Made by a program: the position numbers and the translations under genes
From: Escherichia coli
Lineage (GTDB): Bacteria; Pseudomonadota; Gammaproteobacteria; Enterobacterales; Enterobacteriaceae
Direction: 5' to 3' (one strand)
DNA: 64,000 bases
Assembly (NCBI RefSeq): GCF_030013205.1
Contig: NZ_CP122648.1
In this document: one piece after another, positions 10,944-14,994 of the stretch
Numbering within the stretch: the stretch's first letter is position 1
How the letters are laid out: each line of letters starts with the position of its first letter
Notes under the pieces: generated by a model
Told to the model about the DNA's origin: nothing
The model's database searches: none
What the model saw: only the letters and a program-made list of their open reading frames with translations

Positions 10944-11528
10944 ATGCCAGCAAGCAAAGAAGATTTGCGATTAAAACTGATGGAGGTGGTTAACGCTCTG
11001 TCAGAGTCGCAGGGCAGCACTCCGCAGGAGATTATCGAAATTCTGAATGCGATCCCCGCACAGGATTTCACAAAAGCGGACGAGGATGACGCGAATAAAA
11101 ACATCGTCGCGTCAGTCGAAGATGAATCCTCACTGGCAGAAGCCCAGGCTAAAGCGGATTCCGCATACAGCAATATGGGCCGTCGAGCTCCGGCCCCGTT
11201 TGCTGGTGAAAAGTCGATGGATTACCGCAAGCGTGCATTAATTGGTGCACAGAAGCTGGCTAAAAAATTCAGTGATGTGGATATTCGTTCCGTTTCAGAT
11301 TCTGCAACGCTGGCGGTGCTGGAAGATCAGATTTACCAGGCTGCAAAAGACAGTGTTCAGTGGGCTGTGGAAAATACGCCGGGCTATTTGCGTAAAACCG
11401 TAAGAATGGATGAAGCCGGACGGCGGATTACTGAATATCAGGGGGATCCGAATAACTGGCTTAGTGCTTTCAAAATCCCTCCCCGTCGCCTGGTCAAAAT
11501 TAACACTGCAAGCCTCGCGGGGGCATGA
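10944..11528 (+). CDS. Hypothetical acidic helical protein (194 aa)
   Basis: ATG 10944 after AGAGAGG; followed by a hairpin at 11545-11576. Confidence 0.5.
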   Translation: MPASKEDLRLKLMEVVNALSESQGSTPQEIIEILNAIPAQDFTKADEDDANKNIVASVEDESSLAEAQAKADSAYSNMGRRAPAPFAGEKSMDYRKRALIGAQKLAKKFSDVDIRSVSDSATLAVLEDQIYQAAKDSVQWAVENTPGYLRKTVRMDEAGRRITEYQGDPNNWLSAFKIPPRRLVKINTASLAGA

Positions 11529-11592
11529 AAAACGTGCTGAGTTCAGCCCTGCCGGATTTGGCGGGGCTTATTGCTTATAACCGGATAACATT

Positions 11593-12276
11593 ATGCTTTT
11601 AACAGAAATTGAGGCGGCGAAGCAGATTCGGGACGGACAGCTACCGTCGCCTTATCAGTTTTCCAACATGTGGCTGGTTAACCTGCGTATCACAGGAACC
11701 GGAATGGCCTACCGCGCCGAAGAAAAAGAATTTGTCTGGCGTTCACCGCAAACTTATCTCAATCCGCAGTTCCTGGAACGTTGCGCCGGAGTACCCGTCA
11801 TTATCGACCATCCCGAAAGCAAAACCCTTGAAGACGTGGGCGAACGGTCGCGCATTATTGGCACCGTCATGTTGCCGTATATTCGCGGTGACGAGGTGTG
11901 GGGCGTATGCCGGATTTACGGACAGGAAATCATCGATTACATCCAGAAAGCCCGAGGGGAGGTATCCACCAGTCCGTCGGTTGTGTTTTGTGGTGCCTCA
12001 GGTGGGGCAGAAGTTCCTGATGTAATGGGCGAGGACAATTTTTTTATTGAGGGTACGCCATTTCTTATCGATCACGTTGCGCTCGTGCCGCTTGGTGTTT
12101 GGGATAAGGGCGGGAAACCATCGGGCGTGGAAGTAACAACGCCGACAGCAGAAGAACAGCTTGCCGGAATGGTCCGGGACGTTATTGATGCGGCCTGCAA
12201 GCCAGCTCTGGAAAAACTGGAAGAAATATCCGGGCGGCTGGATCAACTGGAAAAAAACAGAGTGAGTGAATCATGA
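11593..12276 (+). CDS. Hypothetical protein (227 aa), first gene of a translationally coupled operon
   Basis: Stop overlaps the next start (ATGA at 12273-12276). Confidence 0.55.
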   Translation: MLLTEIEAAKQIRDGQLPSPYQFSNMWLVNLRITGTGMAYRAEEKEFVWRSPQTYLNPQFLERCAGVPVIIDHPESKTLEDVGERSRIIGTVMLPYIRGDEVWGVCRIYGQEIIDYIQKARGEVSTSPSVVFCGASGGAEVPDVMGEDNFFIEGTPFLIDHVALVPLGVWDKGGKPSGVEVTTPTAEEQLAGMVRDVIDAACKPALEKLEEISGRLDQLEKNRVSES

Positions 12277-12955
12277 AAATTGCTAAAAACTTAAATCTGA
12301 TTATCCCTGTGCGCACTGAAAAGGGTAATGGCTGGCTCCATGCCACGCCGATCAGCAAAGAGGTGTTTAAAGAGCATTTCTTCATCCTGAGTAAAACCTT
12401 TTCTGCCATTTTTTCTGAAGGTCTTGGTGTTGTTGCGGGTCCGCGCGTTGCCTGCCTTATGCTGGAGAAAATCTCCCGTGACTCCGGTTTATGGGATGGG
12501 GAGAAAGGCATACGTAATACGCTCATAAACGAAATTATTCGCCTGGCAAACCTTGTTTATCCAGTGGAGGGCAAAGGCTACGACACAATCCCTCTCGATA
12601 TGGCGCTGGAGCGTGAAATCGTTGATTTGGACGAAGTGGCGGGTGAACTTGTTTTTTTTACATGCGTCTCGTCGATAAATTCCCCGGAGCAGACGAAGGG
12701 GACTATGGATGCGGTGAATGGAATATGGAGCACTCAATGCTCGTCCTTGAGTCTTACGGAATGGATCGATTCATTGCCGACATTGAAGCCTGCCGTCAGT
12801 TCTGGCGCGACGGCGAACACGTCATCAGCGACATCCTCGACTACTCAGCCGGAGCCGGATTCAGAGACATCTGTGCAGATTCCGGTCTGAATGTAAAAAC
12901 AGCAGCTCAGTTTCGTGAGCTGCTCAAATTCAAAAATCCCGCAGGAGTATTGTAA
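12273..12955 (+). CDS. Hypothetical protein needing a -1 frameshift at a T8 run (12652..12659) to join frame 12273.. with frame ..12955; programmed frameshift or homopolymer indel
   Basis: Upstream frame turns Ser/Thr-rich and non-protein-like after the T run, while the -1 frame (12662..12955) is protein-like and ends overlapping the next start (TAATG). Confidence 0.45.
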
Positions 12956-14994
12956 TGTCAGGTAATCAGATGCCAGTTCTGACGCTGGACGTTAATGAAG
13001 AACACCTCAAACGGCTTGAGGCAATTTTTGAAAAGTATCGCAACGGGCTGATGATCGGCCCTGCCGGAACGCCGATGAAAATACCGGGGCAAAGTGGGCG
13101 CAGCGTGGGGGCAGGCTTACCCGTGGCGGCAAAATCTGGTCGGACAGGACCGGATGTATCCGGGAGAGTGAGGGACGAAAAAGGGCGCTTTGTCGGCAGC
13201 GGAAAAACAGCAGATTCGTTCGTAAGCAACTATAAAGGTCGCGGCGAAACGATGTTTGATAAGTATCTCAGCGGGCTGGGGAAAAATGCCCAACAGACGC
13301 TGAAAACTTACAAGCAGATCAATTCTACACTACAGACGACCACTTCAAGATTAAACAACCTGTTTAAAACAACCGTATCGTGGGGAACAAAACTCTCGGT
13401 TATGGGCGTTGCCGGACCGTTTGGCTTTGGCATGATGTCCCGTAGTGTTGTAGAGAAACAGAAAAATGCAGATGAGCTGGTGGCAACGCCAGGAGAGTTA
13501 AAGGCGGCAGAAAGCACTTATTCGCCTTATTTTTCCGGTGTTGGCAATGTGCTCAATACACTGGCAGCAGCACAAAATGATATATCGCATCCTGCCCGCG
13601 TCGGCCTGCTTAATCTGGGGCTAAATCCTGATAAAAACGCGACTGAAAACCTGCCTGTATTCCTGAAAAAGGTTGCAGCGCTGGCAAAGGAATATCAGGG
13701 AACTGGTCTTACCCAGAGCAATTTCAGAGGAATGGGGCTTGGATGGGTAAATTTTGGTCTTACTAACCAGTTAGTCAAATATCAGGACAAAATACCTGAA
13801 CTCAACAAAGAGTTTTCGTTACGTGCAGCGCAGAATGATTCGTTACTGACCTCTGCACATACAAGTAAATATCAGAATATTACCAGTAACCTGGAAAAAA
13901 ACTGGGATCGGCTTACCAGCGGATTTCAGGGAGCAATGGCGGGGAATGAAGACGCTTTAATCAGAATGTCTGATGGTGCCACGAATGCTGCCCTGAATTT
14001 CATGAATGGTGAGAACTTTAAAAGGATTCTGACGGATGTAGAAACGGGGCTGGATAAACTTGGTAAGTACGTAAATGGCCCGGATTTTAATAACGACCTG
14101 AACAATTTTGCCGAAAACGTTGCAAAGGTTGTTAAGGCACTTAGCGGGTTTGTTGGTTTTGCGGTTGAACATCCCTGGCTTTTTGGGGCCGCAGTACTTG
14201 CTGGACCATCGAGAGTTGGTGCTGTGGCAGCCACAACGACCGGAGTTGCCGCCCGTGTTGTTGGTGGAAGTCTTCTTGGGGCTACAGCCGGAACAGTAGC
14301 TGGATTGGCTATTCCTACAAATGACACACCTACCACCAGTGAGGAAATGAAAGGGCTGGAGGGGCGTTTCAACTTTGATTATTTTAACGAAGTGCAGGAG
14401 TGGCAAAAAAACAATCCGGGTAAGGTCTGGCCTGGAGGATTGCAGGGATTTTCAAATCAAGTAAACAGATCTGCATATTTATCCAGAGGGATCAGGAATA
14501 ACAATCCCGGAAATCTTAATTTCGCAGGACAAAAAGGGGCTACCCTGGAATCGGGGCCAAATGCCCGTTTTGCCAGCTTCCCGACGATGCTGGAAGGCAT
14601 TGCCGCCTTAGATCGGCAGGTAATGCTATACCTGAAACGCGGCAAAAATACGATTGATCAGATTATTGATATTTATGCCCCTTCATCTGATGGAAATAAC
14701 ACATCGTCCTATAAAAGCTATCTCTCTCAGTACACCGGATTAGGTGTTAAGGAGAAAATCGATGGTTCTAATTTTGAGGTCATGAAAAAGCTAATTCAGG
14801 GCATTATTAACCATGAAAATGGTGCTGCCGCTAAAGCTGTAAGTGTTGAAGATGTGATCCGGGCGCTGGCTATGAATCGTGGGATTGTCCCTGCAGCAGG
14901 AAACAATGATCAGAACGTTAAGTTGGAAATTGTTCGGAACGCTGGTGCCGATTACTTCGCGCAACTAATTGGTGCTCAACGGTTCCTGGGATGA
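12955..14994 (+). CDS. Large hypothetical protein (679 aa), tape-measure-like with Gly/Ala-rich hydrophobic segments
   Basis: Helical N-terminal half, hydrophobic glycine-zipper stretch WLFGAAVLAGPSRVGAVAATTTGVAARVVGGSLLGATAGTVAGLAI, C-terminal NNNPGNLNF-containing domain; follows a frameshift-containing gene as tape-measure genes do. Confidence 0.55.
   Translation: MSGNQMPVLTLDVNEEHLKRLEAIFEKYRNGLMIGPAGTPMKIPGQSGRSVGAGLPVAAKSGRTGPDVSGRVRDEKGRFVGSGKTADSFVSNYKGRGETMFDKYLSGLGKNAQQTLKTYKQINSTLQTTTSRLNNLFKTTVSWGTKLSVMGVAGPFGFGMMSRSVVEKQKNADELVATPGELKAAESTYSPYFSGVGNVLNTLAAAQNDISHPARVGLLNLGLNPDKNATENLPVFLKKVAALAKEYQGTGLTQSNFRGMGLGWVNFGLTNQLVKYQDKIPELNKEFSLRAAQNDSLLTSAHTSKYQNITSNLEKNWDRLTSGFQGAMAGNEDALIRMSDGATNAALNFMNGENFKRILTDVETGLDKLGKYVNGPDFNNDLNNFAENVAKVVKALSGFVGFAVEHPWLFGAAVLAGPSRVGAVAATTTGVAARVVGGSLLGATAGTVAGLAIPTNDTPTTSEEMKGLEGRFNFDYFNEVQEWQKNNPGKVWPGGLQGFSNQVNRSAYLSRGIRNNNPGNLNFAGQKGATLESGPNARFASFPTMLEGIAALDRQVMLYLKRGKNTIDQIIDIYAPSSDGNNTSSYKSYLSQYTGLGVKEKIDGSNFEVMKKLIQGIINHENGAAAKAVSVEDVIRALAMNRGIVPAAGNNDQNVKLEIVRNAGADYFAQLIGAQRFLG

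Follow-up and report, generated by a model that had tools for sequence, protein, structure and literature searches.

Introduction

Why a small chromosomal island should carry genes of a phage tail, when neither a capsid gene nor a gene for the large terminase is present in it, is the question raised by a stretch of Escherichia coli DNA of 64,000 nucleotides, referred to here as the window, the source of which is the chromosome of E. coli ETEC4079 (100% identical). The element concerned is an island of ~14.7 kb resembling phage-inducible chromosomal islands (PICIs), which lies at window positions ~2206-16900 and splits yifB/comM, with fragments of yifB on both its sides in the RefSeq annotation. 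A preliminary description of the window, drawn from the letters alone, had pointed to four genes in the right part of this island, the last of which encodes a protein of 679 amino acids (aa) with resemblance to tail tape measure proteins, and had offered three options for it: a relic of a phage ancestor, a factor modifying the tail of a helper phage, or an unrelated membrane-active effector.

The premise behind these options, that a satellite should not need a tail module, is outdated. All PICI-like elements (PLEs) of Vibrio encode a tail assembly chaperone and a tape measure protein, and some of them also a baseplate hub protein, BhuB (Mathur et al., bioRxiv 2025, Nature 2026; PMC11838301/PMC12987554). 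The PLE tape measure protein replaces that of ICP1 in PLE virions, and its deletion costs 96-99.9% of transduction (PMC11838301/PMC12987554). Putative tmp genes are carried by some capsid-forming PICIs (cf-PICIs; PMC12987554), and a tape measure protein by the EPIP satellites of Mycolicibacterium (bioRxiv 10.64898/2025.12.02.691453). The tape measure protein is moreover the target through which Tab and Rta block tail assembly. Experimentally, satellite tape measure proteins were shown only recently and only for the Vibrio PLEs, and no paper on the E. coli island family treated here was found in the literature searched, the coverage of which was incomplete.

In the present study the last two genes of the module were identified, with high confidence, as those of a frameshifting tail assembly chaperone and a tape measure protein, which form a cassette of helper origin, optional within its family, in a PICI-like satellite of Rac-type myoviruses. 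Taken as a whole, and at a probability of about 0.6, the locus would be a satellite morphogenesis module made up of a capsid part and an optional tail-core cassette, the products of which would substitute for tail proteins of the helper.

The tail assembly chaperone

The module comprises four genes, all of which have homologues (Table 1). The first, of 194 aa when counted from its ATG and of 197 aa from an upstream GTG, is followed by a terminator-like hairpin, and the other three are closely linked: the stop codon TGA of the 227-aa gene (12274-12276) overlaps the start codon of the chaperone gene (12273-12275) in the sequence ATGA, and the stop codon TAA of the −1 frame (12953-12955) shares one base with the start codon of the tape measure gene (12955-12957). 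Overlapping stop and start codons as well as a separately terminated 194-aa gene had been claimed in the preliminary description, and coordinates, overlaps and hairpin bear this out. Its third element, a gene of ~228 aa joined by a frameshift, stood in part: a frameshift is involved, but instead of a broken and joined gene a dual-coding chaperone gene with a conserved programmed −1 signal was found.

In frame 0 this gene encodes a G-like product of 205 aa. The slippery T8 run sits just inside the zone in which frames 0 and −1 are both open, the −1 open reading frame (ORF) extending from 12647 to 12955. Slippage there is predicted to join aa 1-129 of the chaperone to the 98-aa extension, giving a GT-like product of 227 aa with ELVFF on one side of the junction and YMRLVDK on the other. 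The run is found at offset 379 in 47 of 49 IMG/VR loci with a homologue of the chaperone and in eight of nine further E. coli loci, and the −1 frame is open up to the start of the tape measure gene in all 49 IMG/VR loci. Three exceptions are known, each of which may be a sequencing error or real variation: a T9 run in prophage L045, which results in an in-frame fusion of 227 aa; a T9 run in L050, a frame-0-like form whose offset was not matched to the other loci; and a T7 run in the island of RM9088 (L065, 1668-2284), where the gene is labelled 'frameshifted' by PGAP.

The pattern of variable sites follows the same arrangement. Upstream of the slip site they are distributed over the three codon positions as 29/15/98, with the excess at the third position of frame 0; in the overlap of both frames they are spread over the positions (18/27/31); and past the frame-0 stop codon (6/12/8) it is the third position of the −1 frame that varies most. 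Distant relatives were obtained from an exhaustive search of representative proteins, a word-indexed protein search having given only 'hypothetical' relatives of 88-99% identity. Most of the 643 relatives from the exhaustive search have ~190 aa and align to aa 1-130; several, however, are single-ORF homologues of 227-233 aa with 32-39% identity, which align to aa 1-215 and have the same VFFY junction. Since the junction is shared by these single-ORF fusions, and since the frame-0 tails of the distant relatives are conserved among each other, the gene is considered dual-coding, with both the 205-aa and the 227-aa product conserved and predicted to be real.

The position of the gene agrees with this picture. 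Homologues with 90% identity stand between the tail tube and the tape measure genes in two complete prophages, namely L002, a 47.5-kb myovirus deposited as 'Actinobacillus phage vB_Apl-pPE4' (PP818812.1), and L051, from E. coli strain F2_407_2_2; the island has no tube gene, and the tape measure gene directly follows the chaperone gene. The modelled fold of the chaperone may correspond to that of the PLE1 chaperone, the crystal structure of which (5ir0) was among its matches. Pfam gave nothing significant for the fused chaperone, and for a stimulatory RNA structure 3' of the T8 run the predicted fold was no better than that of shuffled sequences (z 0.63). By homology, position and frame structure, the middle gene is identified as that of a tail assembly chaperone, and its frameshift as the programmed −1 event by which such chaperones are known, a point that had escaped the preliminary description.

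The tape measure protein

The 679-aa protein is identified by homology as a tape measure protein. Its full-length identity to the product of the L051 gene between the chaperone and baseplate genes is 88%, and the sole close match in a tblastn search of phage records was gp56 of pPE4, with 88.6% identity over aa 1-501. The resemblance to tape measure proteins seen in the preliminary description is thus upheld by homology and by gene position in complete prophages, and the features listed there were recovered as well: a helical N-terminal half (aa ~86-436 mostly helical, in a model of low confidence with a mean pLDDT of 44.7), a hydrophobic stretch rich in Gly and Ala, which is a candidate membrane-inserting segment, and a C-terminal domain with the motif NNNPGNLNF, which matches muralytic structures. 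Confidence of the full-length model was too low for a fold search, and it was used for secondary structure alone.

PHROG families of tape measure proteins, endolysins and injection transglycosylases all match the protein at aa ~500-640. The muralytic domain was matched in 686 phage records; it also matches endolysins, internal virion proteins and tape measure proteins of many phages, and within the tape measure proteins of the Rac-type phage group it is a swappable module, either of the NNNPGN or of the SLT type. Two short 'phage' records matching the domain are irrelevant, one being a PM2-like Vibrio element and the other an unannotated contig of 15.7 kb (~32% identity, domain only). Nothing significant was found in Pfam for the 679-aa protein, nothing in NCBIfam for any of the four module proteins, and no defence family for the module with PADLOC.

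Putative helpers

The gene order of L002 and L051 is that of a complete myovirus. In the head part, small terminase, terminase, portal, MuF-like, a DUF2213 gene of 440 aa, an unnamed gene, major capsid and connectors follow each other; in the tail part, sheath and tube are followed by the genes of 205 aa and 679-693 aa corresponding to the cassette, by three genes of 222, 88 and 335 aa, and by baseplate J and fibres. In its capsid protein this helper type shares 99% identity with Escherichia phage Rac-SA53, and in STEC005 a prophage of this type occupies the Rac site, beside intR, xisR, ralR and recET.

With a chimeric query of island capsid module and helper capsid gene, the place counts of which were compared with those of a search with the module only, the helper-type capsid gene was found in 23 of 33 island genomes and in 61 of 5393 others (odds ratio 201, Fisher p 7e-36, uncorrected for relatedness of strains). 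A search for sheath and tube genes agrees with this co-occurrence, and strains with both an island and a Rac-type prophage include STEC005, ETEC1732 and TUM1881. The helpers of the island are therefore likely to be temperate myoviruses of the Rac type (Rac-SA53 / 'pPE4' type), the dependence resting on co-occurrence.

Three further observations concern these phages. In STEC005 (L052/L056, record ~2,567,000-2,626,000) no more than ~7 kb separate the island at abgR-smrA from the prophage at the Rac site, counted from the integrase end of the latter, so that satellite and putative helper are close neighbours. The pPE4 record carries lambdoid genes of E. coli type and its capsid protein is 99% identical to those of E. 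coli Rac-type prophages and of Rac-SA53; the stated Actinobacillus host may be wrong, or the record may be contaminated. In L051 the gene at 10685-12121, named 'anti-CBASS protein Acb1 family protein' by PGAP, would be the portal gene by its position between terminase and MuF-like genes.

An optional cassette in islands at five sites

The capsid module, consisting of the 194-aa and 227-aa genes, was found in 33 of 5426 complete E. coli genomes, in 47 copies of no less than 95% identity. A cassette of 2.7 kb with the chaperone and tape measure genes comes next in 13 of the 33 genomes. In three others, among them OkiPb01676, the same slot is filled by a gene of 88 aa and a baseplate hub gene of 345 aa (phrog_196, 8.4e-37), which share 78% and 72% identity with prophage genes situated shortly after the tape measure gene, and in the remaining islands the slot is empty, the DUF2213 gene directly abutting p175, a backbone gene of 175 aa. 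The pair of chaperone and tape measure genes is an optional, modular cassette.

The same module occurs at five sites, which are yifB (the island of the window), abgR-smrA, tRNA-Pro at yejM, tRNA-Gly and yicC-dinD, in islands that differ in their integrases and in their replication genes (RepA, DUF927 or primase). Compared with the diverged IMG/VR island L007 (dS 0.6-1.3), the ratio of non-synonymous to synonymous substitution rates (dN/dS) was 0.15 for the 194-aa gene, 0.08 for the 227-aa gene, 0.06 for the N-terminal domain of the chaperone, 0.24 for the tape measure gene and 0.16 for p175; over the module it ranged from 0.06 to 0.25 between diverged islands, and among island tape measure genes from 0.08 to 0.17. 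Island tape measure genes are intact and under purifying selection. A relic of a phage ancestor, the first of the three preliminary options, does not agree with a module that recurs with different integrases, sites and replication genes, with intact ORFs, low dN/dS and no further tail genes.

ETEC4079 itself has a second island (L058, record 1797980-1827080) at tRNA-Pro, between yejM and yejO, with a different integrase and another RepA allele; four of its proteins, the chaperone, the tape measure protein, p175 and p59, match those of the window island exactly. A third copy of the capsid module is present in the same genome. These multiple copies indicate recombination from island to island.

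Tape measure alleles of islands and helpers

Island and helper tape measure proteins differ at their termini. Towards the N-terminus most helper proteins have a Pro-rich insert, GGEANQAPRKPSSPAP, where the island type reads GQSGRSVGAGLPVAAK..., and at the C-terminus most helper proteins end in '...QQIPG' and island proteins in 'AQRFLG' or 'FSGLMPR'. The insert was found in none of 12 unique island and in 30 of 38 unique prophage tape measure proteins (Fisher p 1e-6), and the QQIPG tail in none of the 12 and in 33 of the 38 (Fisher p 5e-8), the sequences in both tests being non-independent. Prophages with the 'short' or the 'LMPR' variant do exist (L014, L023, L048, L051, L041-43). That the island C-terminal tail could be a junction artefact of illegitimate recombination was considered and dropped, as a minority of prophages have similar 'LMPR' tails.

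Where island and helper reside in the same genome, all five pairs differ in both insert and tail. Identity within these pairs extends from 44 to 95%, with 74-95% in three and 44-48% in two of them. Over its central ~530 aa the island tape measure protein of ETEC1732 is 100% identical to the resident helper, while differences persist at aa ~50-100, in the last 6-7 residues and in the chaperone (83%). In the tree of tape measure proteins the island alleles appear in two places, each beside a different prophage lineage.

Lengths of island proteins (669-687 aa) lie inside the range of prophage proteins (604-704 aa), and modification of tail length as purpose of the cassette was rejected for this reason. 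Within the same-genome pairs the island protein is 11-12 aa shorter in two and 22-30 aa longer in two others.

Capsid genes and island architecture

The 194-aa and the 227-aa gene correspond to the helper gene of 440 aa, split and swapped in order, with the C-terminal part first and a coiled-coil linker of ~80 aa rich in Glu, Ala and Lys missing. Over 129 aa the 194-aa protein shares 65% identity with the C-terminal end of the 440-aa protein of L051, and it is a candidate alternative scaffold. No significant match to it was found in Pfam, NCBIfam or PDB sequences; for this reason, and because of the homology to the C-terminal part of a protease-scaffold, the name 'NUDIX hydrolase', given by PGAP in several genomes, is doubtful and probably a misannotation. 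The 227-aa DUF2213 protein is 54% identical to aa ~3-226 of the same L051 protein and matches the head maturation protease family phrog_530 (5.4e-5), and its comparison with PDB sequences yielded nothing meaningful. On the analogy of CpmB of Staphylococcus aureus pathogenicity islands (SaPIs), lambda C/Nu3 and P2 gpO, the two capsid genes probably redirect helper procapsids to a size fitting a genome of 12-15 kb.

According to RefSeq, the left part of the island reads integrase, AlpA-like helix-turn-helix (HTH) protein, AntA/AntB, Icd-like, DUF4222, RepA helicase, a hypothetical protein, ProQ/FinO, PerC and the 57-aa ORF, and the right part 'NUDIX hydrolase' (194 aa), DUF2213 (227 aa), hypothetical (205 aa), 'lytic transglycosylase domain' (679 aa) and two more hypotheticals. 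Genes for capsid, portal, large terminase, tube, sheath and lysis are missing from this annotation of the ETEC4079 locus, in agreement with the absence of capsid and large terminase genes claimed before. Size (14.7 kb), integrase, AlpA-type regulator, an own replication module and the same layout in siblings at five sites are those of a PICI-like satellite. As to other classes, the island has protease-domain and scaffold-like genes only and no own major capsid, portal and head-tail connector set, as cf-PICIs would; among its 17 ORFs scanned against PHROGs no match to Sid, Psu or Delta of P4-like elements was found, and its replication gene is a RepA-type helicase, not an alpha primase; and no further structural genes are adjacent, gene order is permuted relative to the prophage and the ORFs are intact, unlike in a prophage remnant. 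A search for attachment-site repeats gave just an unconvincing direct repeat of 14 bp (2299 and 16779).

The hairpin 3' of perC is more strongly terminator-like than the one within the module. The 57-aa ORF, for which no PHROG match was found, may encode a ribbon-helix-helix DNA-binding protein, judging by its sequence. The product of p175 is possibly a packaging-specificity or excision protein; against PDB sequences it gave nothing meaningful, and none of the known structures of Rpp, Ppi or TerS was matched. The gene was found in 194 genomes, including islands with unrelated cargo such as that of the O104:H4 strain 2011C-3493. Beyond p175 and p59 the right ends of sibling islands are variable (L055 15145-17101, L054 15129-15674, L059 13740-14932); they carry a pair of AAA ATPase and DUF4435 genes (in 2011C-3493), a SieB superinfection-exclusion gene or a DUF3800 pair, and this end of the island looks like a hotspot for defence or accessory genes.

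Table 1. Position of the island, its module and associated features in the window.
Feature	Position	Strand	Basis
PICI-like satellite island	2206..16900	+	RefSeq annotation of ETEC4079 locus; PHROG matches for integrase, Ant, helicase
Terminator-like hairpin 3' of perC, between regulatory genes and morphogenesis module	10570..10600	+	12-bp stem, then T-run
Small ORF of 57 aa, 5' of capsid module	10732..10905	+	Annotated CDS in all sibling islands; homologue in the otherwise different island L055
194-aa protein, homologue of C-terminal scaffold/capsid-binding part of helper 440-aa DUF2213 protease-scaffold	10944..11528	+	phrog_6216 positions 405-545, E 4.8e-47
Terminator-like or attenuator hairpin between 194-aa and 227-aa genes	11545..11568	+	10-bp stem, 7 G-C pairs, weak T tail
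227-aa DUF2213 protease-domain protein, short C-terminal coil	11593..12276	+	Pfam DUF2213 4.4e-6; phrog_6216 positions 115-326, E 9.8e-80
Tail assembly chaperone, frame-0 product, 205 aa, G-like	12273..12890	+	
Slippery T8 run (T_TTT_TTT), predicted programmed −1 ribosomal frameshift	12652..12659	+	Conserved offset
−1-frame extension, 98 aa, T-like domain	12659..12955	+	93% identical to L051; open −1 frame
Tape measure protein, 679 aa	12955..14994	+	phrog_7694 1.9e-290; 88% identical to L051 gene
Variable N-terminal region, aa ~45-95, island-type 'short' allele, non-helical in model	13087..13239	+	
Gly/Ala-rich hydrophobic stretch, aa ~395-454	14137..14316	+	Kyte-Doolittle window 435-453 = 1.66
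C-terminal muralytic domain, RNNNPGNLNF, aa 508-638	14476..14868	+	PDB 9vvp_L 'Gp29' 1.6e-12; 7q47 'Endolysin' 1.3e-10
p175, 175-aa backbone gene with N-terminal HTH, right edge of cassette slot	15046..15573	+	Weak small-terminase and excisionase HTH matches

Outside the island, a Tn7-like transposon with homologues of TnsA, B, C, D and E was found at 55032-~62800, just downstream of glmS, and accounts for a block of low GC content at the right end of the window. The mioC-mnmG interval, which is the oriC region in E. coli, is annotated at ~40700-41080.

Discussion

Of the three options offered in the preliminary description, a factor modifying the tail of the helper seems to fit best. Upon induction of the helper, chaperone and tape measure protein of the island would replace those of the helper in the tail initiation complex of hub, tape measure protein and chaperone, and the tails of particles with island DNA would accordingly be chimeric, with a lumen protein encoded by the satellite and an essentially unchanged length. 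We consider the odds even that such substitution in the initiation complex, leading to chimeric tails with a private tape measure allele, is the mechanism; it is suggested by gene anatomy, comparative genomics and the PLE precedent. Because differences in length are small and go in both directions, the benefit is likely to lie in the identity of the allele rather than in length. A private allele could escape factors that act on the helper tape measure protein in assembly or DNA entry; alternatively, it could bias the supply of tails towards the satellite.

More tentatively, and with less than even chances, the site between capsid-remodelling and packaging genes may be regarded as a dedicated tail-core slot, into which interchangeable cassettes of chaperone and tape measure protein or of the hub are loaded, the centres of which would be refreshed by gene conversion from the helper while the termini stay satellite-specific, so that a private allele of tape measure protein or hub is maintained. 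Should this be true, the slot would allow the satellite to evade, or itself to impose, blocks on assembly or DNA entry directed at the tape measure protein.

Several points weigh against substitution of helper tail proteins by the cassette. ETEC4079, with its three island copies, has no helper-type capsid gene at megablast sensitivity, and the statistic of co-occurrence is not corrected for shared ancestry of the strains. The T7 run of RM9088 may be either a homopolymer sequencing error or an inactivation of the chaperone gene. As the island tape measure protein keeps within the length range of prophage proteins, no effect on tail length is expected. Around half of all islands do without the cassette, which is hence dispensable for the family; unlike the PLE tape measure protein, it would for this reason not be strictly required for transfer. 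High identity to the helper together with obvious gene conversion is also expected of a passively captured gene, and the island-specific C-terminal tail could persist simply since conversion tracts cannot cross the edge of homology. Finally, induction, packaging and incorporation are predictions for this island family.

Some of these points return in the first alternative, according to which the cassette is a passenger, that is, helper DNA captured during co-replication, without dedicated role and kept intact mainly by gene conversion. Its absence from about half of the islands would suit this, as would 88-95% identity to helper alleles with the fully identical tract of ~530 aa in ETEC1732, the interspersed position of island and prophage proteins in the tree, the unchanged length, and the identical cassettes in two islands of one genome, which speak for easy exchange. 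We nevertheless regard a passenger as unlikely. The flanks give no homology for legitimate capture, the DUF2213 proteins being 54% identical at the aa level and p175 being without homologue, and yet three tail-core cargoes, two types of tape measure protein and the hub pair, occupy one and the same slot, always oriented as in an operon and joined tightly or with overlaps. Each of the 12 unique island alleles has retained termini of the island type, unlike every resident helper, and the ETEC1732 chaperone stayed at 83% where the tape measure protein was converted to 100%. The dN/dS among island copies (0.08-0.17) and the precedent of function in PLEs argue in the same direction.

Rather improbable is a role in interference with the helper or defence of the population, in which chaperone and tape measure protein of the island would act as a dominant-negative poison of helper tail assembly and lower its yield. 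Disturbance of helper morphogenesis is common among satellites, the tape measure protein is a proven choke point for the blockers Tab and Rta, and it is with its altered N- and C-termini that the island protein would be expected to touch partners at the tail top and the hub; such contact roles are established for tails of the T4/lambda type. Set against this, the satellite itself needs working tails, its proteins look complete, conserved and functional, prophages share the 'short' and 'LMPR' variants, and PADLOC matched no defence family.

The island could also be thought of as the decayed tail end of a former Rac-type prophage, and its close homology to ordinary tail and head genes of prophages would then be expected. 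This is very improbable for a compact element with an own integrase, AlpA-like regulator and replication genes, which recurs at five sites with modules swapped, in which the protease-scaffold gene is split and permuted, not truncated, the ORFs are intact at low dN/dS and other tail, capsid, terminase or lysis genes are not adjacent. Reclassification as a prophage remnant had been foreseen in the preliminary description for the case that confident homology to ordinary tail genes came with additional tail genes nearby; the homology was found, additional adjacent tail genes were not, and the reclassification does therefore not follow. Equally hard to credit is a stand-alone membrane-active or cell-wall-lytic effector that merely resembles a tape measure protein, for although the muralytic domain is common to endolysins and both the hydrophobic stretch and the PGAP name 'lytic transglycosylase domain-containing protein' could hint at it, the protein has full-length homology (88%) to one in tape measure position between chaperone and baseplate genes of complete myovirus prophages, is translationally coupled to a frameshifting chaperone, lacks a signal peptide or holin context and carries a muralytic module that is swappable among tape measure proteins of this phage group.

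If tail proteins of the helper are indeed substituted, an E. coli family unrelated to the PLEs would follow the same logic, and tail-core substitution would be a general strategy of satellites. The E. coli system brings its natural controls along, namely islands without cassette, islands with the hub cassette and helper alleles in the same genomes, and would offer a genetically tractable model of chimeric tail assembly, so that the reason for a satellite to have a tape measure protein of its own could be studied in the best genetic system there is. The island-specific termini point to contacts at the hub end and the tail top that may decide the pairing of tape measure protein and tail. For annotation there is a gain as well: hundreds of Escherichia and Salmonella genomes have the chaperone and tape measure genes of the Rac type under the names 'hypothetical protein' or 'lytic transglycosylase', and in PHROGs these genes are of unknown function.

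Comparison with known systems

The programmed −1 frameshift of tail assembly chaperones was reportedly treated by Xu, Hendrix and Duda in 2004. In lambda, G and GT are made by a −1 frameshift, and in P2 the pair E and E+E' results from slippage at TTTTTTG. The island resembles both in having two overlapping ORFs directly 5' of the tape measure gene, a homopolymeric slippery heptamer, a −1 ORF that ends at the tape measure start and a signal that distant relatives share. It differs from lambda, where G ends soon after the slip site, in a conserved frame-0 ORF that runs on for 77 codons past it, so that ~230 nt would be dual-coding.

Among satellites, redirection of capsid size is known from P2-P4, and in SaPIs CpmB is related to the scaffold of phage 80alpha. 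The 194-aa protein would be comparable to CpmB, being encoded by the satellite and homologous to that end of the helper scaffold which binds the capsid. Unlike in SaPIs and P4, the helper gene here is a fusion of protease and scaffold, both halves of which are kept by the island as separate and permuted genes, and the role in capsid size is inferred.

With PICIs of gram-negative bacteria (EcCICFT073 type) the island has in common that integrase and AlpA-like regulator come first and point the same way, with a replication module behind them, that insertion is site-specific and size 12-15 kb, and that a small HTH gene of packaging type is present; the split DUF2213 protease-scaffold module and the type of helper are unlike those of the PICIs described with lambda or phi80 as helper. 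As the set of capsid, portal and head-tail connector genes is missing, it is not a cf-PICI. EPIPs are likewise a satellite class with a tape measure protein, but they are actinobacterial and have a serine integrase, longer and variable tails and additional head genes.

There is a likeness to the PLEs as well, although neither the host nor the helper (here a temperate Rac-type myovirus) nor the backbone of the island is related to theirs. PLE proteins are ~20-41% identical to those of ICP1, are encoded in all PLEs, make a tail ~10 nm shorter and are needed for transduction. The proteins of the E. coli islands, known so far from their genes, are 74-95% identical to the helper in three of five pairs (44-48% in two) and 88% to the nearest prophage, occur in 13 of 33 genomes and bring no meaningful change in length. 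In both, however, a satellite without capsid and tail tube genes carries adjacent genes for a chaperone and a tape measure protein, and the sibling islands with a hub gene correspond to the PLEs with BhuB.

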